Positions 3,632 to 62,426 of a DNA stretch of 64,000 nt are shown in pieces. Below the pieces are notes generated by a model, which was not told the DNA's origin, ran no database searches, and saw nothing but the letters and a program-made list of their open reading frames with translations. Every line of letters starts with the position of its first letter. The first letter of the stretch is position 1. The position numbers were made by a program, and so were the translations under genes. The DNA comes from Candidatus Woesearchaeota archaeon (GTDB lineage Archaea; Nanobdellota; Nanobdellia; Woesearchaeales; SKIA01), in assembly GCA_043771635.1 (NCBI GenBank), contig JAYVHA010000007.1, positions 2,233-66,232 on the forward strand, written 5' to 3'.

Positions 3632-5102
<1,471 letters not shown>

Positions 5103-23846: not shown

Positions 23847-23879
23847 TCTACGCAGAACGGTCTGTTTATAATATTTAAC

Positions 23880-23932
23880 CTGACGGATTAACTGCTCCAG
23901 CCGACGTATCGATCTGGCAGGTCACGAATCTT
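23880..23932 (+). repeat. dispersed repeat, 5'-block-only copy A
   Basis: ctgacggattaactgctccagccgac...ctggcaggtcacgaatct. Confidence 0.55.
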
Positions 23933-24000
23933 TTGTTTGAGGTCTGTTTCTTGTGGTTCGCCGCAGCGTTAGTCCGGGAGCGTAAACCGATCAAGGACAG

Positions 24001-24495
24001 CTAGATTTCTACGGCAACTTCGTTTCTGCGAAGAAACGGCAACGTCCACGGAGCGTTGTAGCCGAGGACAAACGGCGCTCCCTTCACCCGTATTTTTTCA
24101 GCCGCGAGTATCGCGAGAAGGCGAGCTATCTGCTCGTCTGTTTTCTGTTCAGAAGTAAATCCTGAGAAACGAAGAGCGGCTATGGTGCGCGCAGGAACGG
24201 ATTCAAGTTTCACTGCAGCGGAAATAGGCGCGGGCAACGACTGTTTAGAGTACTCTTCCGGCATAATAAACGCCATAGTGAATGTTTTTATCTTATGACT
24301 CATAACTACAGGAGCCGTCATCGCTATCTGCTTCTTCTCTTTGTTGCCGCCGAAAATATACGAGGCCACCTGCCGAAACGCCAGATTACGATCATCCAGC
24401 GGAAGTTCGGTCTTTGCCATTACGCACGCAGTATATGCGCGCACCTCTACTTCACCAAGCGTTCGTAGAAGGGTGTATTTCGCCTGTTCAACCAC
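24001..24495 (-). CDS. SOUL/HBP heme-binding family protein
   Basis: YTLLRTLGEVEVRAY..IAMTAPVV pattern typical of SOUL domain. 164 aa. Confidence 0.6.
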   Translation of the reverse strand: MVEQAKYTLLRTLGEVEVRAYTACVMAKTELPLDDRNLAFRQVASYIFGGNKEKKQIAMTAPVVMSHKIKTFTMAFIMPEEYSKQSLPAPISAAVKLESVPARTIAALRFSGFTSEQKTDEQIARLLAILAAEKIRVKGAPFVLGYNAPWTLPFLRRNEVAVEI

Positions 24496-24603
24496 ATGAG
24501 AAAAAAGGGACTACTCCGTATAAAGATGCTGAATCATACAGTCATTACTGCAGAGCAAAAGAAGCGATACTAAATCCCCATTCAATAGGGAAAAGACTTG
24601 ATA

Positions 24604-24850
24604 GGTTAACTGCTCCGGCCGGACACAAATACTTCTTGTCCCGAGCAGGGATGTGATGATAAAAAATAGAAAAACTAGTGGTTAACACAATTTTATGAAT
24701 GCTTTTCACCATAAGAAGTCAACCTCAAGCAGACTTCACGGAAAAATACGCTGGCTCAGATTAAAGTTCTGAATCGGCGAGAAAACCGTACAACATCGAC
24801 AAAGACTGACCTGAAGCAGAGTTTATATATTTCTAGACAGTTCTCAACAC
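24604..24850 (+). repeat. dispersed repeat, diverged copy D ending in TATA for gene 24851
   Basis: ggttaactgctccggccggac ... gatgtgatgataaaaaatagaaaaactagtggttaacaca ... gagtttatatatttc. Confidence 0.45.
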
Positions 24851-25954
24851 ATGAACTTACCGACAACCATGCTTAAAACTTACTTGCATGATTCGGGGTG
24901 GCGCACGCATACGTGCAACTCATGTGGAACCGAGGCACTAAAAAAAACAACGGAAGTATGTCTCAATGCCACCTGTCCGCAAGCCGGCTTTATTCCGAGA
25001 ACGACATTCATGAGTCTTGCCGAAGCAGCCGGTAAATTCGACGGCATCCTCGAACATTCACACACAAAACTTTCCCCTGCACCAATCGTTCACCCCACAT
25101 ACTCCTCTCTCTTTGCCAGTGCAGGCGTCAATGCAGTACACGAGACGATTTTTTCGGAAACTGCCGATGAGTATCGTCGAGTATATGTTATACAGCCAGT
25201 TATTCGAACACAGTTCTTTGACGCAGTCTCGTCCAAAGGTTCATCTACATCCTTTGTCAACCCAAGCTTCATGCAACTAACGGCTTCTCCTGACGACCAC
25301 ATATATGGAATTGAACGACTTTTCGACTGTCTCTCTGGTCTTGGCATCTATGTAGGCAATATGGCCCTTTCACTCAGCGAACGAACTTCTCAGTGGGGAA
25401 TAAGTCCTCACCGAAAATTACAGCTCGATGTACACTACCGAGGGTTACAAATTGCTGACGCAATATATACTTCGGAATTTCCTCAAAGCACACGAGATTC
25501 GCTGTCAATGTCAGATATAGGTATCGGTTTGGAACGTGCAGTGTGGCTCGTGAACGGTTCACCATCTTACTTCGATGCAATAGGTCCTCACGCGCACGCC
25601 CTGACACACGCACCTGAATTGCTTGATGGCGTCCGCACTATGACCCTCATGGCATTAGGAGGTGTAACGCCTGGTCGGACGAACCAAGGATACCAATTCA
25701 GAAGACTCGCGAAGCGAACAGCCTCATTACTAACGGTTCCCGACGTGCGTAAGCTTGCGGAGCACTACTCACGACAGTGGCAAACCTATGGCCCTTCAAC
25801 AGTTAGCGACGCAGATGCAATCGCGACTGTCGAGTCCGAGGTAGATAAACAGTTCGCAAACGCGCTCGCAGCAGAAACCGGGTTCACAAAGCAAACGCCG
25901 GATGAAAACACTGAAACGTTCCTGCAACGTTTGCTCCTCCGAGGGTCCACATGA
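24851..25954 (+). CDS. hypothetical protein with class-II aaRS (AlaRS-like) catalytic-core resemblance
   Basis: FASAGVN (cf AlaRS FTNAGMN), IQPVIRTQFFD, DIGIGLERAVWLV (cf AlaRS DTGMGLERL). No tRNA-binding or editing domain. Leaderless start 26 nt after tttatata. Confidence 0.4.
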   Translation: MNLPTTMLKTYLHDSGWRTHTCNSCGTEALKKTTEVCLNATCPQAGFIPRTTFMSLAEAAGKFDGILEHSHTKLSPAPIVHPTYSSLFASAGVNAVHETIFSETADEYRRVYVIQPVIRTQFFDAVSSKGSSTSFVNPSFMQLTASPDDHIYGIERLFDCLSGLGIYVGNMALSLSERTSQWGISPHRKLQLDVHYRGLQIADAIYTSEFPQSTRDSLSMSDIGIGLERAVWLVNGSPSYFDAIGPHAHALTHAPELLDGVRTMTLMALGGVTPGRTNQGYQFRRLAKRTASLLTVPDVRKLAEHYSRQWQTYGPSTVSDADAIATVESEVDKQFANALAAETGFTKQTPDENTETFLQRLLLRGST

Positions 25955-26670
25955 GGGGTTCCTCATCTGGGTCGATTTTTCTTGCAGGCGGCGGCGATGA
26001 ACTCCAGTCACGTGCAGTGGACGAACTGTTCCTCTCCGCACTTCCTCATAAGCGGGTCGCGTACCTTCCTATAGCGCTCGATTCAAAAAAACACCCATAC
26101 GATGACTGTTTGCGCTGGCTATCCGGCGCATTTGAAGCTATTGGACCTGTTTCCATTACGCTTTGGCCATCTCTTACAGGCAAGACGCTCGCCGACCTCG
26201 AGCCATTCGATGCTCTCTATGTGGGCGGAGGAAACACGTACGCGCTTCGCCAAGCGCTACGCGAGGCGAATTTCGACCAAGTCATACAAGAATTCATTCA
26301 GCGCGGCAAGACAGTCTATGGCGGGAGCGCAGGCGCCATTGTTTTAGGGAACTCTATAACCCCGGCCAGCGTCGGCATAGAGGCCGATATCAACACAGTC
26401 GGACTAGCCAACCTGTCCGGGCTGCAGCTACTCGGGCGGTGGAGCGTCCACTGCCACTACCATTCTGTCGATGACGACGAACTGATTCGATTGAGCGAAC
26501 GCGGCCCAATTATGGCGATTCCCGAACATGCAGGCGTCCACATGCACGCAGGCACGTTTTTCGTAATCGGCAGCTCTATCGCGGTATTCGTTACCGGTAC
26601 GAAGTCCTTCCATAAACCGGGCACTCAGATCAGCATAACCGCAGGCGATCTTCGAGGAAATCAATCGTAA
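25951..26670 (+). CDS. peptidase S51 family (dipeptidase E / cyanophycinase-like)
   Basis: LYVGGGNTYAL and VYGGSAGAIVLG (GxSAG nucleophile elbow). Confidence 0.65.
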   Translation: MRGSSSGSIFLAGGGDELQSRAVDELFLSALPHKRVAYLPIALDSKKHPYDDCLRWLSGAFEAIGPVSITLWPSLTGKTLADLEPFDALYVGGGNTYALRQALREANFDQVIQEFIQRGKTVYGGSAGAIVLGNSITPASVGIEADINTVGLANLSGLQLLGRWSVHCHYHSVDDDELIRLSERGPIMAIPEHAGVHMHAGTFFVIGSSIAVFVTGTKSFHKPGTQISITAGDLRGNQS

Positions 26671-27955
26671 TAGATGGAATATTAGAAAGTTCCTCAAGCG
26701 CTATGCGTCGAAGCTCATCCAATCCAGGATTTTTGCCTACAGTGTTGATGATTACCTGCCACGGCTGCGTAAGTGGCTGGCCAGTCTGGCTCGAAAGGAA
26801 CACTTCAACTGAAGTGCCGAGCTCAGCGAAAATACGCTGCGCTATTCGTTGCGCGGCGACGCTGTAGAGCATGCCGATATGATACACAGGATTCTTCCCA
26901 CAAGCACCCTCCATACTATAGGGACGGTTCATATCAATGACACCATTCACCCTATTTCCCCTGCCTACGAAGCCTTCGTCACCCATCTCGATGGACGAAC
27001 CGGTCAGCGTTAGATAAAGTTCAAGCATATCATAGTTGTCGCGCATATTCAGCGATACTTCCGTGCGCAATTCAGGATGTGCAGCGTTTGCAATGCGGAG
27101 GATTTCCACACGAGCAGTTTCTAGGTTTATCTTGTACTGCTGCACATCAAGTACATTCAGACATAGTTGTGGAATGCACGCAGTAATGTGGAGTTCCGTC
27201 CCACAGCGAACGCCTGTGAGCTTGATGTCTGTTCCTATCCAAGGATGCTGCTCACGAAAGTCAGACCCAGTCATATGCGTCTCGATCGTGAGAAGCAAGC
27301 TCGCCGTATTCGTAAGCGGAGCATAACCTGCTCCTGTCGACGTGTCGTTCGCGAACAGCGATCGCAAATATGGCAAATCCGCTTCGTCACGTGGGGCGAA
27401 CCAGTGCGAGCGCGTCGAAGGTGCATCAGCGACATGCACCTGGCCAGGACTACTCCCCGTTTGTACCTCATAGAGGATTATAATATCCCTATCTGCGTCA
27501 ACGTTCGGAAGACGCTGCACTAGGAACGCTCGCGCAGCTCCTTCAAGGAGCTGCCGGACCGGAATTAACCTATCTCCAAACGATACGGACGCTCGGCCGT
27601 TGATAAGAACGCGAATTGGTGCACGCATGATTCCTTTGCCGAATGAGACGAACGCCTTACCGCCCATCAAGCCAACCTTATCGAAGTTGTGATGTAAGAT
27701 GAAACCAAAGTTCTCTATACAGTATGTAGAATATACCCTGGACAGATGCATGGCAAGCATATCAGCTAGCGTGTCAGGATGTCCTACACCTTTTCGTTCA
27801 GCGACCTCGACATTCTCATAGGCATTTCGATGCGAGAACTGGAAAGTAATCTTTTCAGGATTATTTGCATGTAACGAAATGCGATCAGAGAATGATTTGA
27901 GATGATTCATATTTGAAATTAACGCGACCTCTATTTTATGCTTTGCGTTTAACAA
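26630..27955 (-). CDS. mat: S-adenosylmethionine synthetase, archaeal type
   Basis: VEVAERKGVGHPDTLADMLAMHLSRVY..FGFILHHNFDKVGLMGGKAFVSFGKG..LINGRAS and MGDEGFVGRGNRVNG..GKNPVYHIGMLY match archaeal MAT. Confidence 0.85.
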   Translation of the reverse strand: MLNAKHKIEVALISNMNHLKSFSDRISLHANNPEKITFQFSHRNAYENVEVAERKGVGHPDTLADMLAMHLSRVYSTYCIENFGFILHHNFDKVGLMGGKAFVSFGKGIMRAPIRVLINGRASVSFGDRLIPVRQLLEGAARAFLVQRLPNVDADRDIIILYEVQTGSSPGQVHVADAPSTRSHWFAPRDEADLPYLRSLFANDTSTGAGYAPLTNTASLLLTIETHMTGSDFREQHPWIGTDIKLTGVRCGTELHITACIPQLCLNVLDVQQYKINLETARVEILRIANAAHPELRTEVSLNMRDNYDMLELYLTLTGSSIEMGDEGFVGRGNRVNGVIDMNRPYSMEGACGKNPVYHIGMLYSVAAQRIAQRIFAELGTSVEVFLSSQTGQPLTQPWQVIINTVGKNPGLDELRRIALEELSNIPSITIDFLEDRLRLC

Positions 27956-28095
27956 TTCGGAAAATTTTCGGAAAATTCTGACACAGTAAACAGAGTTTTA
28001 CTTGAGATATATCACTGTAACACACATTTTTAAGATGGTGTTCTATAGTGGATAAAGCTGTTGAAAAGAATCCTTTGCTGGGACAAAAAGTATTA

Positions 28096-28379
28096 CTGAT
28101 CCAGCCGACCGCCCGACCTGACAGGTCTCAAGTCTCAGTCTTTCGGGATATTTTTGGCAGTTGTAGGTTCGCCGTAGGCGGCACTTTCGGACGGAAGAAC
28201 AAAGCGTCAAATTCCTCACCTGTTTTTCTCAGAGCGGCCATCCCTCGAGCAAAAGTTGAGATGATATAATAGAGGAACTCCGAGTCTGTAATACAAACCC
28301 GAAAAAACACATGAAAAAACGTTATACAAATATGAGCCTCGTATAAGATTTATAAGCACCTACAGCGCAACCAAATGAG
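28096..28379 (+). repeat. dispersed intergenic repeat, copy C (conserved 5' block, variable middle, conserved 3' block with bidirectional promoters)
   Basis: 5' ctgatccagccgaccgcccgacctgacaggtctcaagtctc. 3' gagatgatataatagaggaactccgagtctgtaatacaa...gatttataag. Aligns to 38834-39116. Confidence 0.7.
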
Positions 28380-28670
28380 ATGGTTGAATTTCCTATCTTT
28401 AAAGTGGACTTCAGCAATCTTGCAAAGTTGTTTCGTCGTGGAAAAATCGACGTGGTATACAACAAGATGTACTCAACTGCATGCGAGTTGGCAGTCTTTG
28501 AAACCCGAAAATTTGCTTCCAGTTTTAAGGAGCCCAATCATACTAACGTTAGAAGCGCGATGGAAGCCCACTTCGACAAAGTATCCAAGTATCAACAGCG
28601 CCGAATTGCTCACCATATGAATGAAATGAAGGATCTGCTAAGAATGCATCTCGAACTTGAAAAAAAGTGA
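28380..28670 (+). CDS. small hypothetical protein (96 aa), leaderless
   Basis: Charged helical ORF starting ~26 nt after TATA 'gatttataa' (28346) at the 3' end of a dispersed repeat copy. Confidence 0.3.
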   Translation: MVEFPIFKVDFSNLAKLFRRGKIDVVYNKMYSTACELAVFETRKFASSFKEPNHTNVRSAMEAHFDKVSKYQQRRIAHHMNEMKDLLRMHLELEKK

Positions 28671-28684
28671 ATAGCCGCAGGGCG

Positions 28685-29464
28685 CTACTGCTTGTTAGCA
28701 ATTCTTTGCGCATGCATTTCTATAAGAATGTCTAGAAGGCTCGCGAAGAACTCAAATGATTTATCGATTAGACCTTGCGTAAACTGTTCTATTTCAACTT
28801 CGGAATCCGAATATCCTAATGCATCTTTCAAAGAATGAGGAACGCTGACAATAATTCGCTCAAAATATTCCGCTACCCCCAGCTGATTTCGATTCATGCG
28901 AAGTTCCATGCTAACGCGCGCTGTTTGAGAGTGATGGTGAAAGACCTTTCCTCGAAAGTCCTTTATCTTTCCAATCCAATCCCAGTTAGCGATAATGATT
29001 TGTGCCACTTTCGACTCTATTGTGTGTTCGTGACTCAATTGCTTTTTCGCGGCCTTAAGGCTCATATCTGAGCTTACCGTCGATTGAAAAACACTTATTA
29101 TTTTAGGCAGATTTTCGAAGGCACTCAGTAGATGGTGAATAGCGTCCTCCAATAGACAAGTAAACTGAAAACGAACTTTTCTTTCAAAAGCCAGCGCCCG
29201 CTGAGTATTACGGGGCACCATAAGAAGCTCATGATTATTGTGCAGTTCTTCTGCTATTATACGCTCAATTTCTCGTTTGGTTTTACGAATCAAGTCAATG
29301 TGGAATACAGTAGCTGCGCATTTATGTCTAAACGTATCTCTAAAGGCCACAATTTGACGGACAGCACGGTCCTGATCAATATCAACACCTATGCTCCAGC
29401 CGCTGATGAGAGATTGGACTTTTGCGATAAGCTCTTCCACCTGCATGCATATGTGAAACAGCAT
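28685..29464 (-). CDS. hypothetical protein (259 aa)
   Basis: Long ORF, no recognisable motif. Confidence 0.4.
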   Translation of the reverse strand: MLFHICMQVEELIAKVQSLISGWSIGVDIDQDRAVRQIVAFRDTFRHKCAATVFHIDLIRKTKREIERIIAEELHNNHELLMVPRNTQRALAFERKVRFQFTCLLEDAIHHLLSAFENLPKIISVFQSTVSSDMSLKAAKKQLSHEHTIESKVAQIIIANWDWIGKIKDFRGKVFHHHSQTARVSMELRMNRNQLGVAEYFERIIVSVPHSLKDALGYSDSEVEIEQFTQGLIDKSFEFFASLLDILIEMHAQRIANKQ

Positions 29465-29541
29465 GCACTTAAATGACTTGAGCTGACGCTAGCCAGACAT
29501 ATAGACGTTGAATTCATAAAGAAGGAGCGACACACTCATTC

Positions 29542-30144
29542 ATGTCCCAGCAGAAAGACGTTGGCCTGCTAAAGAGCATCTCTAAGACCATTCTCAGCCT
29601 AATTCTTGCAGTAGGAATCTTGCTGCTGGGCGCGATCCTAATTGCAGGTGCAGCGTACGGCATGATCTCGGTATTCGCGGCTCCTGAAACGTTGTCAGCA
29701 GCAGACACTACTATAATCGGCTTCATCATATTTGCACTAACGTTGGCAGGTCTAAGCTACGGGGCTGGCTCTAGTCAAGCCCAGGAGCTTAAGCAAGAGT
29801 ACGTTGCCAGAGGAGGCTCCTTTAGCATCGATGCAATTCTTCTGTTTGCAGCATATGCCATATTCCGGGCCGCTCCATTGGCGCAACATGATGTGCTAAC
29901 TCCTTGGATGGGCACGGTATTTCTATGGATGGGACTTTCAGGCGTAATTATCTTCCTGTTTAAATTTCCCCTTGGCTTACTGCAGTTTGTTCTACTGCAG
30001 GCTGGCCTGCAAAAGATGACTTACGAGTGGTTCACGTCGCTTGCCAAGTCCCTTCGAAGTGAACGTGGGATTGTAGCGTATGCAATCTTGCTCTTGCTAG
30101 CTCTAATTATAGGATTGCTGCTTCAGCATTTCATTCCCAAATGA
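29542..30144 (+). CDS. hypothetical membrane protein (200 aa, ~5 TM)
   Basis: Hydrophobic segments throughout. Confidence 0.45.
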   Translation: MSQQKDVGLLKSISKTILSLILAVGILLLGAILIAGAAYGMISVFAAPETLSAADTTIIGFIIFALTLAGLSYGAGSSQAQELKQEYVARGGSFSIDAILLFAAYAIFRAAPLAQHDVLTPWMGTVFLWMGLSGVIIFLFKFPLGLLQFVLLQAGLQKMTYEWFTSLAKSLRSERGIVAYAILLLLALIIGLLLQHFIPK

Positions 30145-30620
30145 GAGAATGCGGGATAGGTTTCCAATACGGATGGGAGAACTCATGGAACGTCTATAAT
30201 TTTACAACTATATCGGGCGCGCCAGAATTCAAAGGAGAAGTTTCTGTAGAATCGGGCGGCGTTCTCCTCCCGACAAATGACGGCGGTAACAGGCTTGGAA
30301 GCGTTATGACGTACATTGGAGCAAGCGGCCTAGCAGGAAGCACATTAATGGTGCAGGCTCGAACAGGAGGCTTTACAAAAAACGGAAGTCCTGTGATTGA
30401 TGTGGAAGCAGTCTTGCGCCTCAACGGCACCAACGTTAAGGACGTTATGCGCCAACAACTACCATTTCACCAACTTACCGACGTTGAGAAATTGAAACAG
30501 CATGGCTTTCGAGTCGCGACGTTTATTGATGGCGAAGTTGTTCCAGGCACTGTCAAAGAATACACACCGGAAACCATTCAAGCGGCGTACACTGAATCAA
30601 TTAAGTGGGTGACTTTTTAG
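30141..30620 (+). CDS. hypothetical protein (159 aa)
   Basis: ATGA overlap with the upstream gene suggests co-translation. Confidence 0.4.
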   Translation: MRECGIGFQYGWENSWNVYNFTTISGAPEFKGEVSVESGGVLLPTNDGGNRLGSVMTYIGASGLAGSTLMVQARTGGFTKNGSPVIDVEAVLRLNGTNVKDVMRQQLPFHQLTDVEKLKQHGFRVATFIDGEVVPGTVKEYTPETIQAAYTESIKWVTF

Positions 30621-30924
30621 CACAAGCTTGCCTTAACGCTTGTTCAGCATAGATGTCCATCTCGACAAGTTTCTGCTGCTCGGCTGGCGACAGTAGTTCC
30701 CAGCTGTGCAGGAGGATTTCTTTGAATTTGTCTACGTCTAGTGTTACAGTGCGTTGTATCATAACTTGTCTTTGATCGTTGACAGTTTTATGTCTTGTCG
30801 TCGGAGACAATGCTCCGCCCGAGCAGTATACCCGGCCACTTAATGTTTCGGGTTTAGATCGCAAGCTGTTCCAGATTTTATCAATTGCAATGCTTTGGGG
30901 AAAGTATATACTTTGGACTTCCAC
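30601..30924 (-). CDS. small hypothetical protein; source gene of the dispersed repeat family (fragments elsewhere)
   Basis: Peptide ..KPETLSGRVYCSGGAL.. and ..KFKEILLHSWELLSPAEQQKLVE... Nucleotide-level relatives at 28096-28136, 38834-39013 (encodes MNEPTITLSVSKFKAILIHSWDLLSPQEQQKLV), 23880, 24604 and 31591. The 5' portion overlaps the 30840-31484 ORF. Confidence 0.35.
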   Translation of the reverse strand: MEVQSIYFPQSIAIDKIWNSLRSKPETLSGRVYCSGGALSPTTRHKTVNDQRQVMIQRTVTLDVDKFKEILLHSWELLSPAEQQKLVEMDIYAEQALRQACAKKSPT

Positions 30925-31484
30925 TTCGAGTCGTTTGCGCTGTAAACTTCGGCGAAATTTGCCTTAAACGAATTGCGAAGCTTTTTCCAAAAAGTAGAAG
31001 TTGATTTATTAGGAACCAGACCAATAGCGCTGTAACGATTTCCAATCCAGCCAACGCCAGACATGCCGATCGATTTCTTGTTTCCCGTATGAATCGTTAG
31101 TAGAAAAACTCCTGGCCAGCCGGCGCCAAAGTACGGAACATAACTGTTTGCTCCGGTTCTCAACTCAGTCCAGCCTCTAAACGGGTCTTCTATCCAGGAC
31201 TGTTTGCCATCCAATTGCAAAAGCGGTAGAGCGCCACTTGGAATGTGCCACAGGTAAAAGACACTACTAGACTTTAGTTCAAATTTACCACTTGCAATCC
31301 ACTGGTGCGGACCATTTGGTAGGATGGCAGCAAGTTCGCCTGACGAGCTAAGCAAGCCGCCAAGAGCTGCTAAATCATCTTCAGTCAAGCAAAGATCAAT
31401 CTGAGGCACTTCGTCATATGCGAAAGGCACTATAAAAAATATTCCAGGCACAAAATACGCCGAGCATGGTACCCGAGCGTCCAA
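30840..31484 (-). CDS. hypothetical protein (214 aa)
   Basis: Long ORF. Start context next to repeat copy E. Confidence 0.35.
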   Translation of the reverse strand: MDARVPCSAYFVPGIFFIVPFAYDEVPQIDLCLTEDDLAALGGLLSSSGELAAILPNGPHQWIASGKFELKSSSVFYLWHIPSGALPLLQLDGKQSWIEDPFRGWTELRTGANSYVPYFGAGWPGVFLLTIHTGNKKSIGMSGVGWIGNRYSAIGLVPNKSTSTFWKKLRNSFKANFAEVYSANDSKWKSKVYTFPKALQLIKSGTACDLNPKH

Positions 31485-31590
31485 AGTCCCACCACTAGTT
31501 TCGGAAGAACGAGCCTAGATACCGAAGACCATCCGGACCAAACGGACCACTTCCGACCAAACTGGAAGATTTCCGGTAAAACGAGAAAAA

Positions 31591-31747
31591 TCTGAGAATG
31601 TATTACAACTGCTCCAGCCGGTCCCCAGGGCAAACAGGTCCTGAACCGGACGTATAAAACCCTCCTAAGCACTTCTGGGCTTTTAAAGCCGAAAATCCTT
31701 CGAATTTTCGCAGCGGGTTTAATAAGGTCGAAACGGCTCCACCCCCC
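31591..31747 (+). repeat. dispersed repeat copy E upstream of the biosynthetic operon
   Basis: tctgagaatgtattacaactgctccagccggtcc ... caggtcctgaa ... gggtttaataagg (TATA ~32 nt before ATG 31748). Confidence 0.45.
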
Positions 31748-32797
31748 ATGGACGCCACTTTCAACCAACGAGTCGTGTGTGGCAAAGGAATAACGGCGCA
31801 GGAGCTTGCTCAGCTACCCTCCGCATGCGTGATTTCAACAAAGTCAGCAGTACGGGCCTTCAAGCAGTATTTGCCAGAAAGCGATTACCCAACGATTATT
31901 ATTCGTTCAAACAACCAAACAGAGATTGAGCGAGTAGTTATCCAAATCCAAGGCAGCAACTGCGAGACCATCATCGGGCTTGGCACGGGCTCGGCGATCG
32001 ATGTCTCCAAAGTAGTTGCGGATGCTGTGAACAAACCACTTGTATGTATTCCAACCGGTCTATCGTGCAATGTCTTTGCAACAAATAAATCCGTGATTTG
32101 TAAGCAGTCTGCTATTTGCACGATTGTTTCCAAAATCCCCGAGATAGTGATCGTGGACACAAATTTACTATCTCTCTCCGACCTTCGCTACACCATTGCA
32201 GGAATCGGCGATGTGCTATCTGTGTACACTGCAATGCATGACTGGGATCTTGCGCGAGTTCATAGCGATGAACCTGACAATTTCACAATACGAACGGTAG
32301 CTGAATCTTTGATAGACCCGATGGTACAGTTAGTTCCAAAGCTTATCCAAAATGATCCGTCGGCAATAGAGCAACTCACGCAACTACTACTGCTTTCTGG
32401 ATACCTGACGAATATGTACGGCTCAGGCCGCCCTGAAAGCGGATCAGAGCACATGTTTGCACGCGCTATAGAAACAGATCCAGTATTCGGTAAACGATTG
32501 CTTCATGGAGAAGCAGTTCTCCTTGGCATCCTTCTCAGTGCAGAACTTCAGGGACGCCCAAGCGACGCAATTCTAGGTATTGCACAAATGAGTGGCTTAA
32601 GGGCGCGCTATGAAGACGCTGAACTAACCGAAAACGATATGGTGAAGTTCTTAATAACAGCGAGTACAATCAGACCTGAACGGTTCTCAATTTTCAACAT
32701 TGTCCACCTAGACGCTACACTCGCACACGATATCGTGAAGCGTGTGCTGGCGAAGCTTTCGGTGCCACATGTCATTCCTGCAGCTACCACACTTTAA
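31748..32797 (+). CDS. DHQS/iron-ADH superfamily enzyme; glycerol-1-phosphate dehydrogenase (EgsA)-like or sugar-phosphate cyclase-like
   Basis: GLGTGSAIDVSKVVA (nucleotide-binding), PTGLSCNVFATNKS, metal-ligand-like SGSEHMFARAIE and HGEAVLLG. 349 aa. Confidence 0.5.
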   Translation: MDATFNQRVVCGKGITAQELAQLPSACVISTKSAVRAFKQYLPESDYPTIIIRSNNQTEIERVVIQIQGSNCETIIGLGTGSAIDVSKVVADAVNKPLVCIPTGLSCNVFATNKSVICKQSAICTIVSKIPEIVIVDTNLLSLSDLRYTIAGIGDVLSVYTAMHDWDLARVHSDEPDNFTIRTVAESLIDPMVQLVPKLIQNDPSAIEQLTQLLLLSGYLTNMYGSGRPESGSEHMFARAIETDPVFGKRLLHGEAVLLGILLSAELQGRPSDAILGIAQMSGLRARYEDAELTENDMVKFLITASTIRPERFSIFNIVHLDATLAHDIVKRVLAKLSVPHVIPAATTL

Positions 32798-33683
32798 ACT
32801 GGACGGCAACAGAGTGATCTTTCTGAACCAATACGAATATCTCAGCACACCGGAAAGGCTTTCGGTGAATAACCCGTTACACCAAAAAGTACTTGTTGAC
32901 GAAGGCATCATTGTCGGTCCTCCACCGCCTGCACCTGCTACAACAAAGTTGCCAGTGCTGTTCATTGAACCTCACTACGATGACATTGCACTATCCTGTG
33001 CGAATGCACTTCTTGTACATCGTGCTAACGGGCATCCCGTGCACGTCGCAACGTTGTTCCCTCGTACTGCGATAGCGACGTTTCCATGGCGAGCACAAGT
33101 TACATTGTCGGCTGAGGCGTATCATAAGCTGCGGCAGGCTGAAGGCTCTGGAGCTATGCATGCTTACCTAGGGGGTACGGTCCACTCATTTGACGAGCGG
33201 GGCGCAAGCCTGCGGGGATCAAAAGAACCATTCGGCCAATATGAAACCGGCGATCAAATTGTTGTTGAACGGCTGTTAGAAGGAGTTGAAGCACTTATAC
33301 AGGAGATAAAGTGCAATAATGTATTTGCGCCTATGGGATTTGGTATGCACCGCGATCACCGCGTGGCTCATGAAATCGGCCTTGCGTTAGCGAACCGCGG
33401 CCATCAAGTACAATTTTACGAAGATCAGCCCTATGCAAGCAACCGGTTCACATTTGCCACCACACTCGGATCGCAATGGCAAATGCACTACACAGACAGT
33501 GGCCCGAACCTTGATTCGATAGCAAATCTCATCACTATGTATCGCTCCCAATTTGACGATAGTACACGATCACAAACACTTGCAACTCTTAAGTGTCAAG
33601 CACGTACAGCGGCAGTTGAAGGTCGAGGCGCCCACGAATTCGGGGATGCAGAGTTTGCTGAACGGACACGGGTGCTTAGATGA
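32742..33683 (+). CDS. LmbE/PIG-L family N-acetylglucosaminyl deacetylase
   Basis: LFIEPHYDDIALSC (PIG-L HPDDE-type metal site) and MHRDHRVAHE. Confidence 0.65.
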   Translation: MCWRSFRCHMSFLQLPHFKLDGNRVIFLNQYEYLSTPERLSVNNPLHQKVLVDEGIIVGPPPPAPATTKLPVLFIEPHYDDIALSCANALLVHRANGHPVHVATLFPRTAIATFPWRAQVTLSAEAYHKLRQAEGSGAMHAYLGGTVHSFDERGASLRGSKEPFGQYETGDQIVVERLLEGVEALIQEIKCNNVFAPMGFGMHRDHRVAHEIGLALANRGHQVQFYEDQPYASNRFTFATTLGSQWQMHYTDSGPNLDSIANLITMYRSQFDDSTRSQTLATLKCQARTAAVEGRGAHEFGDAEFAERTRVLR

Positions 33684-35002
33684 GAATCGCGTTCATCGAT
33701 GACGAACCAGAGATATATCCGCATTCGTACGGTGGAAAAGCACGGACAATACGAACACTTGCAAACGCACTAGCAAATACGCCTTCAGTAGATAAGGTGC
33801 TTATCGCAAGTCGAAGTATCCGAGACTCACGGAAAATATTCTATGAAGAGGGCGTACAGTTTCAATTGCTCGAGGGCTACGGCATAGCAAGTGAGTTGCG
33901 AAGAATCACTCATGAATATGACATTGTAAACGTTCATACTTGCTCGTTTACATTCCCACAGGTGCTTGATACGCCAGCGCGTATTATCAACCACCTCCAT
34001 GATGTTATCTACGCAACATGCGACGCAGGAAGTCATCTTGACAAAGCCCTCGGCGGCCAATGGAGCGGAATTATAGCGCCATCCGAATTCGCAGCTCAAA
34101 CCGCACGGAATGTTGGCTGGTGGAACCTGAGCCTAGACGATATTGCTGTAATTCCTCGCATCATTGACGCCAATCGATTTTTTTTGATGGACCAGAGTGC
34201 TGCACGCCAAGCGCTCGCAGAAGTACTACCGAAGCACGCGCAAGTAATTCGGGACAGCTATCCGTTACTTGCATTTCCGAATCGACCAACCGCAGGAAAA
34301 GGCGGCGCCATACTCGCTGAATTACATGAATTACTCCGTGAAGAATTTGAATCGCCGCTTATTATCACAACCGGCGGCGACAGCGATTCGCATGCAATCA
34401 GTAGCGGCTGGTTGCAAACCAATCAGCTTCGCGCACTGTATGCAGCGGCAGATATATGCCTTGTCCCATCACTTCTTCCTGAGTCATTCTCTCAAGTTCC
34501 TCTGGAAGCAGTTATGTGCGGAACACCAACCATCTCTACGCGATTTGGTAATCTTGGACTGCTTGCAGACACTGTACCGGGAATATACGAAGCGAAACCT
34601 TCAGCAGCACACATTAGAGAGCGAGTGCATGAAGTGCTTGCTGAAGGGAAAGAAGCAGCAGCAGAAGGCCGCACCAGAATTATGACGCAGTATAGCGCAC
34701 GCAGCGTTATTGTAAAACTGCTTGCTGCGTATGATTCGATGCCCGCACATCCAAAACCCGCAGTAACACATAGTTCTCTGGACGCACGGTGGTTTACATC
34801 CCCTCTCCTTGCAGTCTACGGGACAGAGGCATTCCTGGGAACTGACGGTTTGCCTCAGGCAATTGCACTAACAGAGAACGATCGCTCCCTTCTGCAGTAT
34901 TGCGCACGCGCACGAACACAAATCGACTTGAGTCGTTCGGGCCTAGAATACACACAAAGCGTGCGACGGCTCAGTGAAGCAGGAGCACTCATCAAGGCAT
35001 AA
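33680..35002 (+). CDS. glycosyltransferase, GT-B fold (GT4-like)
   Basis: C-terminal ADICLVPSLLPESFSQVPLEAVMCGTPTIST (GT1/GT4 E-x7-E region). Confidence 0.65.
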   Translation: MRIAFIDDEPEIYPHSYGGKARTIRTLANALANTPSVDKVLIASRSIRDSRKIFYEEGVQFQLLEGYGIASELRRITHEYDIVNVHTCSFTFPQVLDTPARIINHLHDVIYATCDAGSHLDKALGGQWSGIIAPSEFAAQTARNVGWWNLSLDDIAVIPRIIDANRFFLMDQSAARQALAEVLPKHAQVIRDSYPLLAFPNRPTAGKGGAILAELHELLREEFESPLIITTGGDSDSHAISSGWLQTNQLRALYAAADICLVPSLLPESFSQVPLEAVMCGTPTISTRFGNLGLLADTVPGIYEAKPSAAHIRERVHEVLAEGKEAAAEGRTRIMTQYSARSVIVKLLAAYDSMPAHPKPAVTHSSLDARWFTSPLLAVYGTEAFLGTDGLPQAIALTENDRSLLQYCARARTQIDLSRSGLEYTQSVRRLSEAGALIKA

Positions 35003-35005
35003 AAC

Positions 35006-36136
35006 ATGGTACAAAAAACTCCCTTCGTCATTAATGACATATTGTTCTTAGAAGAATTCTGCAATCTCGCATGCGGTTACTGTGAAGGTTTCTACCCGAC
35101 TGAATTCAAGTTCAAACCCCGAGAAGGCAAACTCCGTATGCCAACTTCATGGAAAGCCATGGTTGAAGCGGATCAGTCACTGCAAACACGCCTAAGCAGC
35201 GAACCAACTGTTGACAGTTTATTCGATGTCGGAAGAGAAGTGCTTGAGCGCATGAATGAAAAAGCAACCTACCCTATTCTGAAACTTTCAGGAGGCGAAA
35301 TATTTCTCTATGATAAGCTCGTTTCATTTGTTGAATCTATTCATGATCAATACTCAGGCGTTCAGTTACTCACGAATGGCGTTCTCTTTGGTGCCGCCGA
35401 GGTTGACCGTTTAGCGTCACTCGGGAACGTTTACTTTCAAATATCTCTAGATGGCGTTACACCACAAACAAACTCCTCGCGCTCTAAAAGTGGCGCAACA
35501 CTTGATCGAATACTACGGAACATCGATCGCATTCAAGATGCCGGCATGGGACTCGAAATAAACTGTGTATTAACGAATACAAACACTGATTCTTTCCTAC
35601 ATCTTGCGGAATACATGGCGCACCGCGGCACGTCTATTGTAATGCCTCGCCCAGTACGCGGACCACCTGCAAAAACGCAAGCGGCAAGCGATGAACAAGT
35701 GCGCGCATTTGCAACGGTTCGTGAGCGATATAATGATATTGGACACGTGCTTCCACCTGAAGCGTATCTTGATCGAGTCATTAGCGTACTCGAACGTAAG
35801 CAACGAAGTTGGGATTGTTTCGTGCCCTTTTTCGTACTCGGAGAAAACTATTACGGAAAAATTAACACCTGTACTTGTAGTGGAGCTTTACCGGTTCTTG
35901 GAAACGCACTTGACAAGGATACAACCGCATTCCACACACTGAGCACTCGTGCACAATACGATGCAAAGAGTAAGCCCGAGCCATGCGCAGACTGCATAAC
36001 GCAATACGAAGTGTTCAATCTGTATGCAGAAGGAAAAGTGACTGATGCCGAGCTTACCAAACTCGCGACATTCCGTGTACCAAACGCACTTGCAACAGCA
36101 CAGAGAATTAAAGCAGAGCTGCATACTTCGCGATGA
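35006..36136 (+). CDS. radical SAM enzyme (possible SPASM/twitch auxiliary cluster)
   Basis: CNLACGYC (CxxxCxxC). Extra Cys near C-terminus (CTCSG..CADC). Confidence 0.7.
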   Translation: MVQKTPFVINDILFLEEFCNLACGYCEGFYPTEFKFKPREGKLRMPTSWKAMVEADQSLQTRLSSEPTVDSLFDVGREVLERMNEKATYPILKLSGGEIFLYDKLVSFVESIHDQYSGVQLLTNGVLFGAAEVDRLASLGNVYFQISLDGVTPQTNSSRSKSGATLDRILRNIDRIQDAGMGLEINCVLTNTNTDSFLHLAEYMAHRGTSIVMPRPVRGPPAKTQAASDEQVRAFATVRERYNDIGHVLPPEAYLDRVISVLERKQRSWDCFVPFFVLGENYYGKINTCTCSGALPVLGNALDKDTTAFHTLSTRAQYDAKSKPEPCADCITQYEVFNLYAEGKVTDAELTKLATFRVPNALATAQRIKAELHTSR

Positions 36137-37305
36137 AAACTCTTGTACATATTCCATGGAGTTTGCAGCCAGGGTTTATTGGCGGCACCGAACGCTTTGC
36201 AATCGATCTTACGAAGGGACTGCGCAAGCAAGGCAACGATGCGACAATTGTTTGTTCCAACCTTGAAGAGCAATTAATTATCGAAGGCGTACCGGTGTTC
36301 GGACGCATTCCAGCACAATATCGAGATAAAGTTAAAAACTATGGCGCAGCCGACGAACACTTCTTTCGGAACGAAGTGCTTCGCGGATCAGAGCCAGGTT
36401 TCTGTGAACGCATGTCGGCATATGTTGCACAGCAAATAGAAGGGTTTGATTTCGACATCATTCATTTTAACAATATGATCGGCGCGGCAAAATTACCACC
36501 AGCGCTTCTTCGTCGTTCGATTGTAAGCGTACATGACTGTCCTGAAGAGCTAACAAACTATTGGAAAATGCCGTACGAGACAATACGACGCGCTGTGGAC
36601 CAAAATGGCGAACTAGTGCAAGCCGGTGCGCTCGTCGCAAGTACTCAGCACTATGCTGCTCGATTTAGTGCCGACCTCAATTTCACGTTTGCTGTTATTC
36701 CACTTGGTGTGCAACCAAGCGCAGTTACTCAATCCCAACGGAACCCTTCTGAGCCACCCACCATTCTTTTGCCCGCGCGATTTGATGTAAACCAAAAGGG
36801 ACAAGACATTGCCGTGCGAGCGCTTAGTATGCTGAAAGCATGGAACGTACCCGCACGCATGATACTGAGCGGATACCAGCCTGAAACGTATGCTCGCGAT
36901 AAAAAGATGATTGATACACTTATTGCTGAGTGCGGCGCCGAGGAAGAAATAACCATAACCCGATTCGAGCGACGAAGTGATGCATATGCAGCCGCTGACA
37001 TTGTTGTTTCCCCGGAACGTTTTTGTACGTTTGGACTTTCTATAGCTGAATCATTAGCAGAAGGGATACCAACTGTACTTGCACCAATTCCAACGTATCA
37101 GGAAATAACGAAGGGTGCCCCTCATGCATCCTTCGCTGTCGATCACACTCCACTTGCGTTTGCGAATGCACTACGTACCGTGATTCGGAGCGGATACTTA
37201 CGCGATCCTGTAGCTGCAAAACAGTTCCAAGCCGATCACTCGTTTGCAACAACAGTAAACCGCTATAGCGATTTGTATGCCGCAGTTCTGCGGCGAGCAC
37301 AATGA
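36133..37305 (+). CDS. glycosyltransferase family 4
   Basis: N-terminal GGTERFAIDLTKGLRKQGNDATIV. C-terminal GLSIAESLAEGIPTVLAP. Confidence 0.65.
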   Translation: MKTLVHIPWSLQPGFIGGTERFAIDLTKGLRKQGNDATIVCSNLEEQLIIEGVPVFGRIPAQYRDKVKNYGAADEHFFRNEVLRGSEPGFCERMSAYVAQQIEGFDFDIIHFNNMIGAAKLPPALLRRSIVSVHDCPEELTNYWKMPYETIRRAVDQNGELVQAGALVASTQHYAARFSADLNFTFAVIPLGVQPSAVTQSQRNPSEPPTILLPARFDVNQKGQDIAVRALSMLKAWNVPARMILSGYQPETYARDKKMIDTLIAECGAEEEITITRFERRSDAYAAADIVVSPERFCTFGLSIAESLAEGIPTVLAPIPTYQEITKGAPHASFAVDHTPLAFANALRTVIRSGYLRDPVAAKQFQADHSFATTVNRYSDLYAAVLRRAQ

Positions 37306-37943
37306 TTCGTGCAGTACTATTCGACATGGACGGAGTACTCATCAACTCGGAAGAATTATGGCATAGCATCGAACCTGAAATCCTTCGTACTATAGTACCT
37401 GAGTGGAACGAAGCCTTGCAAAAACACATTACGGGCATGAGTTCGCGAGGCGTGTACGCTTATCTCTGTGCTGAGCACGGCGTTACGGAATCGTTTTCCG
37501 TGTTTGAAGGACGCTACCGCGCTGCAGCAAAACGCATTTACGGGAAGGAAGGAGCGCTATACCCTGGTGTGCGTGAAGCACTGGTTATGGCGAGTAAAGA
37601 CGGTCGAAAAATCGCGATTTGCTCATCTTCACCCACAGCCTGGATACAGATGATGGTGGAACACCTCAACATTAAGGATTGTTTCGATGCAGTAGTAAGC
37701 GCAGACCGCATTGGCGGAAAAGGCAAACCTGCACCTGATGTATATTTGCTTACCTGTCAGACACTTGCTGTGAAACCAGCCGAATGTATTGCAATTGAAG
37801 ACTCAAGAAACGGAATCGCATCAGCGAAGGCTGCTGGGATATTCACGTATGGATATCTAAATGGCTTCAACACGCTAGAAGATTTGGCTAACGCGGACGC
37901 CATAATCACAGACTTCGCGCAGATCGAATGGAACAAGCAATAG
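37302..37943 (+). CDS. HAD-superfamily hydrolase (subfamily IA, beta-phosphoglucomutase-like)
   Basis: AVLFDMDGVLINSE motif I. IAICSSSP. IEDSRNGIASAKAAG. Confidence 0.7.
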   Translation: MIRAVLFDMDGVLINSEELWHSIEPEILRTIVPEWNEALQKHITGMSSRGVYAYLCAEHGVTESFSVFEGRYRAAAKRIYGKEGALYPGVREALVMASKDGRKIAICSSSPTAWIQMMVEHLNIKDCFDAVVSADRIGGKGKPAPDVYLLTCQTLAVKPAECIAIEDSRNGIASAKAAGIFTYGYLNGFNTLEDLANADAIITDFAQIEWNKQ

Positions 37944-38727
37944 CGTTGCGCAGCGCAGGTGCATGTTCAGAAAGCAACGCGAGTTTCGTGCGAGCTGAAG
38001 CAGTAATCGATTTCGACGACGCATCACGTTTCTTTCCGAACTCTGCAATTAAATCCCTATTGCGTTTCTTCATTAAGGGCAGCACCTTAGCAGCTTCTAC
38101 TCTATTCAGTGGAAACACGCCGTCATAAGCGCCGAGAAACACTGTTAAACCTTTCAGGTCCAGGCCGTTAGTGCGGGTGATGAATAGCTGTGTGCTGGCA
38201 ATTGCTAGGTCTTGAACTACTGTAGCGCTATGAGCGTCACCAAAGTCAATGAATACTATGCCTCCCTGAGTTCGAATACTATTTTCCCGAGTGATGTCTG
38301 CGTGAATGGTGGCCCGTCGAAGCGAGTTTGGAGCGTTTGAACTTCCCCCAATCGCGCTAAGCGCACGGTGCAGCATCCCAAGAGACTTGCCCACAGCCTT
38401 TGCTACCGGAGTCGAGATTCGCAAGCCAAGCGGTTCACCCTGTACGTATGAAAGAAGCAAAGCCGAACAGTTCTGGTCCACAGTAAAGAGTTTTCCGGCC
38501 TTCGTAGGTATTACTGCAGGCACCGGCGCTGAATGCCCAGTTAGCGCTGCCAGAAGCACCCCTTGTGCTCGCAGCGTTTTGCTCGTTTTTGCAAACCGGA
38601 GTACGTAATCGCGCTTACCGGCAGTGACCTTGAATACAGCGTCCGGACCTCGATTAAGGCGTTTAATCGCGCTTGCGGAAATTCCATACTGCCGCAATAC
38701 TAATTGCACGATTCGGACAGTTGCCAT
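37906..38727 (-). CDS. aminoglycoside/choline-kinase-like phosphotransferase (APH family)
   Basis: IHADITRENSI and FIDFGDA (Brenner and DFG-like motifs of the PF01636 family). Confidence 0.6.
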   Translation of the reverse strand: MATVRIVQLVLRQYGISASAIKRLNRGPDAVFKVTAGKRDYVLRFAKTSKTLRAQGVLLAALTGHSAPVPAVIPTKAGKLFTVDQNCSALLLSYVQGEPLGLRISTPVAKAVGKSLGMLHRALSAIGGSSNAPNSLRRATIHADITRENSIRTQGGIVFIDFGDAHSATVVQDLAIASTQLFITRTNGLDLKGLTVFLGAYDGVFPLNRVEAAKVLPLMKKRNRDLIAEFGKKRDASSKSITASARTKLALLSEHAPALRNAIACSIRSARSL

Positions 38728-38833
38728 GACAACTTGCTTCTAGCAGTGAATTAAAATGTGCCTATCCTGCAAAACGGGAAAAAACGCACTAGTGTCACGA
38801 GAAAGTAGTCAGGAGAGTCTCTGTGAATCTGAC

Positions 38834-39116
38834 CTGACGGGTTAACTGCTCCAGCCGACCCCACGACCTGGCAGGTCTCAAGTCTCCGGGAAAAGGCCAA
38901 TGGCCACTAGCTTTTGTTGCTCTTGGGGTGAGAGCAAGTCCCAGCTGTGGATTAGAATAGCTTTGAACTTCGAAACACTCAGAGTTATGGTAGGTTCGTT
39001 CATACCACCTCTAAAGGTAAGATGATATTTAGCGGGAACTCCGAGTCCGTATAACACGCGACGAAAAACGGCCTAAAAACCGTATAACATATTCGAGATT
39101 TATAAAGGATCAATTC
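38834..39116 (+). repeat. dispersed intergenic repeat, copy B
   Basis: 5' ctgacgggttaactgctccagccgaccccacgacctggcaggtctcaagtctc. 3' gtaagatgatatttagcgggaactccgagtccgtataacac...gatttataaagg. Minus strand retains a 41-codon remnant MNEPTITLSVSKFKAILIHSWDLLSPQEQQKLV.. with SD agaggtgg. Confidence 0.7.
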
Positions 39117-56269: not shown

Positions 56270-56507
56270 CGGTAAAGTATAGTAGTACTGGCATTGTCTT
56301 CTGTTCGGAGAGTTTTTCGAGCCTGCTTAGCACTTGTTCTTTGCTTAGGCATAGCTCCATAACGTATTCTACTTTTGAGCTGCTTGAGCTGAATAGCTGT
56401 CGCACGGGTAATTTTAGATCTATTCTTCTTCGGCTATCGTTGTAGAGTACTTTCCCTGTTATGGTTACGATTTTGTTTGTTGTGCCGAATAGTATTTTTT
56501 CTCCCAT
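56235..56507 (-). CDS. hypothetical protein (90 aa)
   Basis: ORF lying between the ATPase and TFB genes in the same orientation. Confidence 0.3.
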   Translation of the reverse strand: MGEKILFGTTNKIVTITGKVLYNDSRRRIDLKLPVRQLFSSSSSKVEYVMELCLSKEQVLSRLEKLSEQKTMPVLLYFTDEGGEDSNAVL

Positions 56508-56617
56508 CCCGTATACATATACTGTATTTCATAATTTATCTACTTTCGCGTGATAATTTCAATGTATTTCCGGCGTTTCCGGATTACCGACGGCGCCACC
56601 CCTAAATCCAGGCCTAA

Positions 56618-61964: not shown

Positions 61965-62426
61965 TCCACCTCCTTAAGCTCCATATGAGCTATGGCATCC
62001 AAAAGCCGCAAATATGCCTCGACAGAACCATACTTCCAAGTCAGAAAAGCAGCACAAGAAAAGCAAAAAGCAACATCAGAACCAGCAAGCCGTCCACCAC
62101 ACAAAGCACATTCAGCTACAAACACCATACAAACCTAAGAATTGCGATGACTAAAGTAAGGAACTCAGAGAATGTATAACAAAGCCGGCACTTATCTAGA
62201 GCTAACTCGCTGCCAACGGCGACTGCATTTTTTACATGTATAATCTGTTCGAAAATCCGTTACAGCAACAGGTCTAGATTCTGTTCGAACAACAGACCAG
62301 TTAGAATGCCGCGACTATGTTCAAATCATAACCATTCTAACTCGGAGAATGTAATACGCATGACTGTAACATACCTGTCGCATACCCGACAAGCTTTAAT
62401 TCGCATAACACTTTTAGGTTAATGTC

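Follow-up and report, generated by a model that had tools for sequence, protein, structure and literature searches.

Tandem arrays of attachment (att) sites comparable to the one treated here are known from the accretion of integrative conjugative elements (ICEs) and cis-mobilizable elements (CIMEs) in bacteria. For archaeal and bacterial tyrosine-recombinase elements, repeated integration at a tRNA 3′ end is stated to leave direct-repeat scars, and it is established both that such elements form arrays at one site and that TFIIB homologues are encoded by archaeal ICEs (PMC6563490). The Thaumarchaeota-based catalogue of archaeal integrated mobile genetic elements also lists 'cryptic integrated elements' at tRNA genes (PMC6563490), and archaeal ICEs encode a TFIIB/TFB homologue beside type IV secretion genes (Krupovic et al. 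2019, PMC6563490, citing Makarova et al. 2016). The 64-kb stretch of DNA analysed here (the window; Candidatus Woesearchaeota archaeon, contig JAYVHA010000007.1) carries five copies of an intergenic repeat, which a first-pass annotation had traced to a small gene and interpreted as a mobile bidirectional promoter cassette. The five copies are in all probability att scars, bounding a tandem array of integrated elements at the 3′ end of a single tRNA-Glu(UUC) gene.

The repeat copies were located with the short block GGCTGGAGCAGTTAA, allowing up to 3 mismatches across the window. Matches were obtained at the five places named by the first-pass annotation and nowhere else, all on the minus strand (23873-23931, 24595-24621, 28077-28135, 31607-31640 and 38827-38885), with similarity spanning 27-59 nt; copies 23873-23931 and 38827-38885 were 81% identical over 59 nt. 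The part common to all five proved to be the 3′ end of tRNA-Glu with recombination-arm sequence, and not, as had been proposed, a derivative of the small gene. The intact tRNA-Glu(UUC) was found ~2.8 kb past the window end, at 6934-7008 of sequence L114 (window-equivalent ~66802-66876, minus strand), which is the same contig continued beyond the window; it was retrieved via a lookup of the methyltransferase protein, and its identity to the window was verified. The tRNA terminates in ...GGTTCGAATCCCGGCTGGAGCA. When it was aligned with the five copies, the sole invariant columns were its last 11 nt, CGGCYGGAKCA. The 55 nt after the tRNA (TATAACCAAGCAGGTCACTTTTACAGAGACTTTGCAGACCACTTTAGCGTGACAC) are homologous to the 55 nt after the core in copy 38834, the tRNA end and flank together (L114 6998-7064) matching 38857-38791 with 79% identity over 67 nt (E = 2e-12). 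Since the core equals the tRNA 3′ end and all 5 of the 5 copies share the orientation of tRNA-Glu (minus strand), the repeats are read as att scars, and their repetition is ascribed to serial site-specific integration rather than to movement of a promoter cassette.

In the proposed mechanism, a tyrosine integrase would recombine the attP of an element with the last bases of the tRNA gene. Each integration would restore the tRNA and displace the old 3′ end, with everything behind it, to the far side of the newcomer; upon reuse of tRNA-Glu, scars would pile up as co-oriented direct repeats. The array would accordingly be ordered tRNA-Glu / E5 / scar 38857 / E4 / scar 31620 / E3 / scar 28107 / E2 / scar 24621 / E1 / scar 23903 / chromosome, and the order of the integration events would be reflected along it. 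E5, from tRNA-Glu to scar 38857, is a ~28-kb conjugative element with integrase, methylase, type IV secretion system (T4SS) pilin operon, VirB4, TFB, RHS toxins, OLD nuclease, RNase T and the small gene sORF-2. E4 (scar 38857 to scar 31620, 7.2 kb) contains a glycosyltransferase and radical-SAM cluster, E3 (scar 31620 to scar 28107) measures 3.5 kb, E2 (scar 28107 to scar 24621, 3.5 kb) includes an S-adenosylmethionine (SAM) synthetase, and E1 (scar 24621 to scar 23903, 0.7 kb) encodes a SOUL protein. E1-E4, their integrases lost, are best described as cryptic remnants.

All scars lie on the minus strand. The attR of E5 (38791..38885) consists of the arm palindrome GACCTGCCAGGTC, the core CGGCTGGAGCA (38857->38847), identical to the tRNA-Glu 3′ end, and the 55-nt flank homologous to that of the intact tRNA. 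The E4/E3 scar (31607..31640) has the core CGGCTGGAGCA (31620->31610) and half an arm palindrome, GACCTGTTTGCCC, and the E3/E2 scar (28077..28135) the arm palindrome GACCTGTCAGGTC and the core CGGCTGGATCA (28107->28097). At the E2/E1 scar (24595..24621), the core CGGCCGGAGCA (24621->24611) is followed by GTTAACCTATCAAGTC, with a weak promoter-block remnant at 24772-24796. The outermost scar, between E1 and the chromosome (23873..23931), reads GACCTGCCAGATC, core CGGCTGGAGCA (23903->23893), then GTTAATCCGTCAGGTT. The arm palindrome GACCTGnCAGGTC was counted 8 times at up to 2 mismatches against 1.25 expected; three of these matches are the arms just upstream of the cores in copies 23880, 28096 and 38834. 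A fourth (38831-38843) is a related site, ACCCGTCAGGTC, after the core in copy 38834, and there the GACCTGnCAGGTC-type arm and ACCCGTCAGGTC flank the core as the two arms of an inverted repeat, 23 nt apart. The arm palindromes are plausible candidate sites for the integrase or an accessory factor. A reading of the repeats as non-coding RNA was dropped: the Rfam scan of the window gave no RNA family at the repeats, and conserved palindromes with 1-nt centres make poor RNA hairpins.

A 439-aa open reading frame (ORF) begins 220 nt after tRNA-Glu. Among its 977 homologues, those ~40% identical (E ~1e-90) carried PF00589 (Phage_integrase) or were named site-specific integrase, the homologues so named coming from Woese-, Nano- and Pacearchaeota assemblies. 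Pfam, PHROG, NCBIfam and PDB sequence searches with the 439-aa and 445-aa proteins were all negative; the ORF is assigned as a probable tyrosine integrase transitively, through its homologues. Putative catalytic residues are the box I arginine (SGIRAPKE), an R-H pair (YDFRHNS) and a tyrosine (IVYYSEY).

At the opposite end of E5, the scar abuts sORF-2 (38878..39003, minus strand), an intact 41-aa member (MNEPTITLSVSKFKAILIHSWDLLSPQEQQKLVAIGLFPET) of a small protein family (hidden Markov model (HMM) E = 1.6e-23), whose stop codon overlaps the arm palindrome. The same arrangement, a small gene of this family abutting an att site, was found in four other loci or locus pairs (L128, L127, L129, and L107 with L108). 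In L128, tRNA-Ser (560-643), an integrase homologue (916-2217), small ORFs and the small gene (4048-4182) are followed by AATCCGGCTGTTGGCG (4405-4431), which duplicates the tRNA-Ser 3′ end. L127 comprises an integrase homologue, 9 kb of transporter cargo, a motif promoter (described below) with its ATG at +52, and the small gene, whose TGA runs directly into GACCTGACAGGTC and then CGGCGGGAGCA; the same arm palindrome as in the window comes after this gene, and ~100 nt farther a second, longer fragment, GAATCCCGGCGGGAGCA, represents a tRNA-Glu(CUC)-type end. L129 holds a conjugative element (TraC, TFB, NikA-like) ending in the small gene and a tRNA-like fragment, immediately after which the integrase of a second, terminase-bearing element follows. 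L107 and L108 are identical up to a tRNA-Val 3′ fragment 106 nt past the small gene and different beyond it, one continuing into an ICE and the other into a 5.9-kb element that ends at an intact tRNA-Val; the fragment, TGGGCCTGCCCG, is present in three copies in L107/L108, the third 3.3 kb upstream. Different elements hence occupy the same tRNA-Val-derived att beside the small gene in L107 and L108. The targeted tRNA and even its orientation relative to the small gene differ among loci (L119, L123), and the constant feature is that the small gene reads toward the att site; in the window, L127 and L128 it is located at the element end opposite the integrase. Assemblies that harbour relatives of the element bear the labels Woesearchaeota, Nanoarchaeota and Methanosarcinales.

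Further details of these loci were recorded alongside. In L128, perfect 43-nt tandem repeats (412-504) lie directly upstream of the target tRNA-Ser, each with the first bases of the tRNA region. The 5.9-kb element of L108 (10345-16257), between tRNA-Val and the copy of its 3′ end, encodes a reverse transcriptase (RVT_1), a HEPN/nucleotidyltransferase pair and a DUF4143 ATPase, and from 10345 onward in L107 the sister population has the ICE at the same att. A Woesearchaeota assembly (L122, 1363-1740) contains a tRNA-Glu(CUC) followed at most 200 nt later by sequence homologous to the tRNA-side arm of the window (CAGCAGGTCAGATTCCAGAG...CTTTGTTGTGACA), then directly by a member of the small-gene family, with no integrase between.

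Several observations weigh against a stacked array of integrated elements. E1-E4 are without integrase and contain housekeeping-looking genes (SAM synthetase, SOUL protein), so that for these segments it is the flanking scars by themselves that speak for a mobile origin. The tRNA overlap is short (11-12 nt), the scars are unlike the tRNA body upstream of the core, and a paralogue of sORF-2, sORF-1, has no scar beside it. A search with three flanking proteins returned no empty or partly filled site, all contigs with the flanking genes having the same arrangement, and the 439-aa integrase itself gave no direct match in the Pfam, NCBIfam or PDB sequence searches. The archaeal-type SAM synthetase gene (26630-27910, minus strand) lies inside the att-bounded E2; either the gene was brought in as cargo, or DNA that once was chromosomal lies between the boundaries of the remnant.

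The small size of E1-E4 (0.7-7 kb), the lack of integrases and the att copies that bound each of them, together with the arm palindrome and promoter module kept in two, would also be expected of integron-like capture, by which the integrase at tRNA-Glu inserts integrase-less cassettes, the array then being a cassette platform and not a row of decayed whole elements. We judge this quite improbable. The integrase is 28 kb from the first 'cassette' and within a seemingly complete conjugative element, the cassette genes are on both strands, and E4 and E5 have homologous arms, which related whole elements should have. Capture is disfavoured for E1-E4 because the att-bounded units in other genomes (L127, L128 and L129) hold their own integrase. 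The repeats were also considered as integron attC sites and rejected as such: GTTAACC does not fit GTTRRRY, and they are tRNA-derived, not attC-like.

In addition to the att core, some copies contain promoter sequence. The ~110-nt 3′ block that the first-pass annotation had assigned to every copy is convincing in copies 28096 and 38834 only, where 28252-28349 and 39013-39110 share a long block of 98 nt (64% identity, E = 3e-7); the two have a 42-nt block of 90% identity in common besides. Comparison within the window sequence gave a mere trace in copy 24604 (25 nt, 80%, E = 0.5) and no match in copies 23880 and 31591. The block in copy 38834 belongs to the promoter/leader module of sORF-2 (39004..39110, minus strand), composed of TTTATAAATC, two TGTTATACGG boxes, the ACTCGGAGT palindrome, ATATCATCT and the Shine-Dalgarno (SD)-like AGAGGTGG, with the motif G at 39055 and the ATG at +52. 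A homologous module at 28242..28349 (minus strand; motif G at 28294) precedes sORF-3. The conserved combination of TATA, ACTCnGAGT and an ATG at fixed distance was thus confirmed, though among the repeat copies in these two only.

Formulated as GT(TA/AT)TACAnnCTCnGAGTT, the motif is present on the minus strand at 63861, 62357, 62180, 39055 and 28294, with an ATG at +52 from the motif G in 3 of the window cases and at +53 for 28294. The strict pattern gave 2 matches against 0.06 expected, the 20-mer GTTATACATTCTCTGAGTTC being found exactly twice: at 63842..63861 (minus strand), where the ATG of the DNA methyltransferase gene 63096-63809 follows 52 nt on, and at 62161..62180 (minus strand), at the same distance from the start of a 55-aa Cys-rich ORF (61961-62128) with an ATG, which heads the T4SS pilin operon. 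The previously noted occurrences before the methyltransferase and twice in 61965-62426 could all be reproduced, except that the third of them (GTATTACATTCTCCGAGTTA, 62338..62357, minus strand) has no ATG at +52. A further copy on the integrase side, beyond the window, was 78.6% identical to the sORF-2 promoter over 56 nt (E = 4e-9). There, 52 nt past the motif, a 10-codon ORF (MLSRDLVTTK; L114 7201-7233) overlaps the start of the integrase gene, and its sequence, GAGACTTGGTCACC, is similar to GAGACTTGAGACC at the ends of small genes. Judged from these similarities, the integrase leader looks like the small-gene module minus its gene.

A census of the motif (G-TWWWAC-A-nn-CTCnGAG) covered 314 kb of the window and related loci and returned ten unique occurrences. 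An ATG followed at +52 in seven of the ten, one of these at +53, in the window contig and in two other organisms (L111, L127). The seven genes are three members of the small-gene family (one in the window, the others in L111 and L127), the methylase, the leader ORF of the pilin operon, sORF-3 and the 10-codon ORF ahead of the integrase. All five window occurrences of GTWWWACAnnCTCnGAG are element-associated, whereas the called host genes of the window have a plain TATA-like box ~26-30 nt before the ATG. Because the motif sits at element genes while host genes have the plain TATA, it is an element-specific promoter and leader class and not the general TFB recognition element (BRE)/TATA consensus. 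Most first-in-operon host genes in window 15433-39852 show a TATA at ~26-30 nt before the ATG, a distance that implies mainly leaderless mRNAs. The element promoters, unlike these, have a ~22-nt leader with an SD-like sequence. For the motif promoters, the predicted transcription start lies in or close to ATATCATC, ~22-25 nt ahead of the ATG, and for host genes leaderless transcription is predicted.

The long block found in both 28096 and 38834 is the terminal module of elements of this kind. In the proposed layout, the module would comprise its own promoter and leader, a ~40-aa gene reading toward the att site and the arm palindrome GACCTGnCAGGTC overlapping the stop codon. Archaeal repressors commonly act between the TATA box and the start site, and the ACTCnGAGT palindrome is positioned between the TATA-like box and the likely start site. 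It could be bound by a repressor, by the small protein itself or by the TFB paralogue of the element; both promoter and arm palindromes are putative protein-binding sites. A shared operator or upstream activating sequence for the downstream host genes was considered and rejected, as the distance to the next gene start ranges from 31 to ~196 nt.

The motif with its palindrome is real, the copies are intergenic and mostly between divergent genes, and a TATA is present ~28-31 nt before the ATGs of 28380, 24851 and 31748. These features would suit the cassette of the first-pass annotation, that is, a ~280-nt non-autonomous unit resembling a miniature inverted-repeat transposable element (MITE), which has outward promoters on both strands and a repressor operator, and which spread to several intergenic regions and supplies promoters to its neighbours. 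Such a cassette is very improbable. The promoter block is found in 2 of the 5 copies, neither long copy has terminal inverted repeats at its ends or target duplications in its flanks, all copies are in a single orientation, and their common core is the tRNA-Glu 3′ end. The plus-strand TATAs, although present before the leaderless ATGs as annotated, are non-homologous between copies and fit the general leaderless layout of the window, and that of copy 38834 faces no plus-strand gene. No further copies came to light on scanning with the short-block pattern, which gave 0 matches in the genome collection, 1 chance match in the metagenome collection (inside a bacterial ribulose-phosphate epimerase gene) and 102 chance matches, with no extended similarity, in the viral collection.

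The protein family was delineated with the two window ORFs as queries. Exhaustive HMMER searching retrieved 26 representatives, and a follow-up search 78 clusters of 35-130 aa, none of which has any annotation. The core consensus of the family is TITLxVxKFKEILLHSWxLLPxEKQxELxxxGIYP. Neither exact lookup (107-aa ORF) nor word-index searching (53-aa protein) gave anything, and the family was seen by exhaustive HMMER only. The ORF 39003->38878 (41 codons) shares 61% protein identity with the ORF ending at 30601, as the first-pass annotation had recognised; it is, however, no decayed derivative of the latter, sORF-2 being a complete family member and not a relic. For sORF-1, the true gene is probably the 53-aa ORF that starts at ATG 30762 (30601..30762, minus strand; HMM E = 9e-22), a paralogue with divergent C-terminus, the 107-aa ORF being an over-extension. 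Between sORF-1 and sORF-2, pN (nonsynonymous) was 0.23 and pS (synonymous) about 1, i.e. with synonymous sites saturated, which indicates purifying selection on the small protein. In place of the GIYPE of the family, sORF-1 has DIYAEQ... in its C-terminus, and at its 3′ end it overlaps with the convergent gene 30141-30620. With no recognisable att scar after it, the position of sORF-1 may represent a lost element boundary inside E3. A third small gene, sORF-3 (28128..28241, minus strand), is a putative 37-aa ORF that fills the small-gene slot, with the same ET-TGA end within the arm and its ATG at +53 from the motif; its sequence is unrelated to the family, and the family HMM gave no match to it.

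A local gene-family expansion, in which the small gene and its untranslated regions were duplicated, some copies decayed and the tRNA resemblance is coincidental, would account for the two paralogues sORF-1 and sORF-2 and for the upstream and downstream blocks both common to copies 28096 and 38834, but is highly improbable, given that the synonymous sites of the paralogues are saturated while the att block is 90% identical, so that blocks and genes do not have one common duplication history, that three copies are without any small-gene remnant, that homology to the tRNA flank reaches 55 nt past the core, and that a gene beside a tRNA fragment recurs elsewhere with tRNA-Ser, tRNA-Val and tRNA-Glu(CUC).

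With serial integration at tRNA-Glu as the preferred reading, the role of the small protein was considered. An AlphaFold model of it (predicted local distance difference test (pLDDT) score 87.5) shows an extended N-terminus and two helices, a predicted layout compatible with a ribbon-helix-helix (RHH) monomer; fold, profile and sequence searches gave no match to RHH, Xis or any other family. The protein may be a DNA-binding regulator or a recombination directionality factor (RDF) acting on ACTCnGAGT and/or the arm palindrome. More specifically, the ~40-aa family might constitute a new class of archaeal RDF or master regulator, which sits on the att side opposite the integrase, binds the palindromes and couples its action to the integration state, a proposal that we put forward tentatively and regard as rather unlikely. 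On this proposal, the small gene would read into attP from the side opposite the integrase, and its product would bind ACTCnGAGT just after the TATA of its own promoter and of the integrase, methylase and T4SS promoters, and/or the GACCTGnCAGGTC arm site. Excision and integration would join or separate the small gene and the integrase gene and, if the proposal is true, would in this way couple the transcription programme of the element to its integration state.

The genomic setting was characterised by Rfam and Pfam. The window, a piece of archaeal chromosome, opens with a minus-strand 23S-tRNA(Ala)-16S operon (Rfam scan); a group I catalytic intron (RF00028, 55 bits) was detected at 797-1121 (minus strand), within the 23S rRNA gene. 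The region of the repeats contains ordinary-looking genes on both strands, encoding a CopD-like protein, a SOUL haem-binding protein, an S51 peptidase, the archaeal SAM synthetase, several hypothetical proteins, an APH-type kinase and an RNase T-like exonuclease, as well as a cluster of Fe-ADH, PIG-L, glycosyltransferase, radical SAM and HAD genes. From 39.8 kb onward, the cargo of E5 (39852-54556) comprises an OLD-family ATPase/TOPRIM nuclease (39852-41603) and three consecutive RHS/YD-repeat giant ORFs (42046-54269), with a Barstar-like immunity gene (51215-51541) placed between the giants. These are followed by a TFB paralogue, a VirB4/TraC ATPase, a type IV secretion pilin and a DNA methyltransferase, a gene group that is a conjugative mobile element. 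Its conjugation and regulation genes (55478..61964, minus strand) are the TFB paralogue (55478-56269), a 90-aa ORF, the VirB4/TraC ATPase (56618-59617; PF19044, PF11130), a 673-aa protein and the T4SS pilin (61635-61964; PF18895, PF04956), and this gene order was also found in L129 and L107. No relaxase or VirD4 was recognised among the scanned ORFs, the sole signal being a weak NikA-like match of a 58-aa ORF. A 151-aa protein (62427-62882, plus strand), encoded in the interval from the pilin operon to the methylase gene, has a PycTM domain (PF18967, precomputed annotation), which Pycsar defence effectors are known to carry.

If the att assignment holds, ~43 kb of the contig, from window position 23.9 kb to the tRNA past the window end, are to be re-read as horizontally acquired and stacked at one tRNA. 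This covers the SAM synthetase, the glycosylation and radical-SAM cluster, the RHS toxins and the defence genes, and changes the metabolic interpretation accordingly. The small unannotated gene, the arm palindrome and the tRNA 3′ fragment together provide a marker by which integrated elements can be delimited in archaeal metagenome genomes with poor annotation, and the element promoter class with its fixed 52-nt layout is a possible target of the TFB paralogue or of the small protein.

Compared with known systems, the locus is like tandem tRNA arrays of tyrosine-recombinase elements in having an intact tRNA at one end with the integrase adjoining, co-oriented copies of the tRNA 3′ end that bound successive segments, and older segments without recombination genes. 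It differs from them in its short core (11-12 nt), in the conserved palindrome GACCTGnCAGGTC in the arms and in the conserved ~40-aa gene that reads into the att from the end opposite the integrase, for which no description was found. With archaeal TFB-encoding ICEs, E5 shares the VirB4/TraC ATPase, the pilin, the TFB paralogue and integration at a tRNA gene; unlike these, it showed no ParB coupling and, save for the weak NikA-like match, no recognised relaxase or coupling protein, its cargo includes RHS toxins and an OLD nuclease, and one dedicated motif serves the integrase, methylase, pilin-operon and small-gene promoters. Excisionases, RDFs and small RHH regulators occur in mobile elements, and the small protein resembles them in being very small and encoded beside the att, in its predicted extended N-terminus and two helices, and in the palindromic candidate sites in its own promoter and the adjacent arm; it is unlike them in having no sequence, profile or fold match and in lying on the attP side opposite the integrase. 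Short repeated non-coding intergenic blocks near gene starts recall MITEs, but here there are no terminal inverted repeats, the orientation is single, the core is tRNA-derived and the copies are confined to one array. Unlike an integron, the array has genes on both strands, an integrase inside a 28-kb conjugative element and tRNA-derived repeats. The locus is hence an ordinary kind of integrated-element array, for which there are earlier descriptions of integration into tRNA 3′ ends, of att repeats, of arrays where a site is reused, of cryptic elements and of TFIIB-bearing ICEs; what appears to be new is the ~40-aa att-proximal family, the fixed-geometry promoter common to integrase, methylase and T4SS genes, and the conserved arm palindrome.

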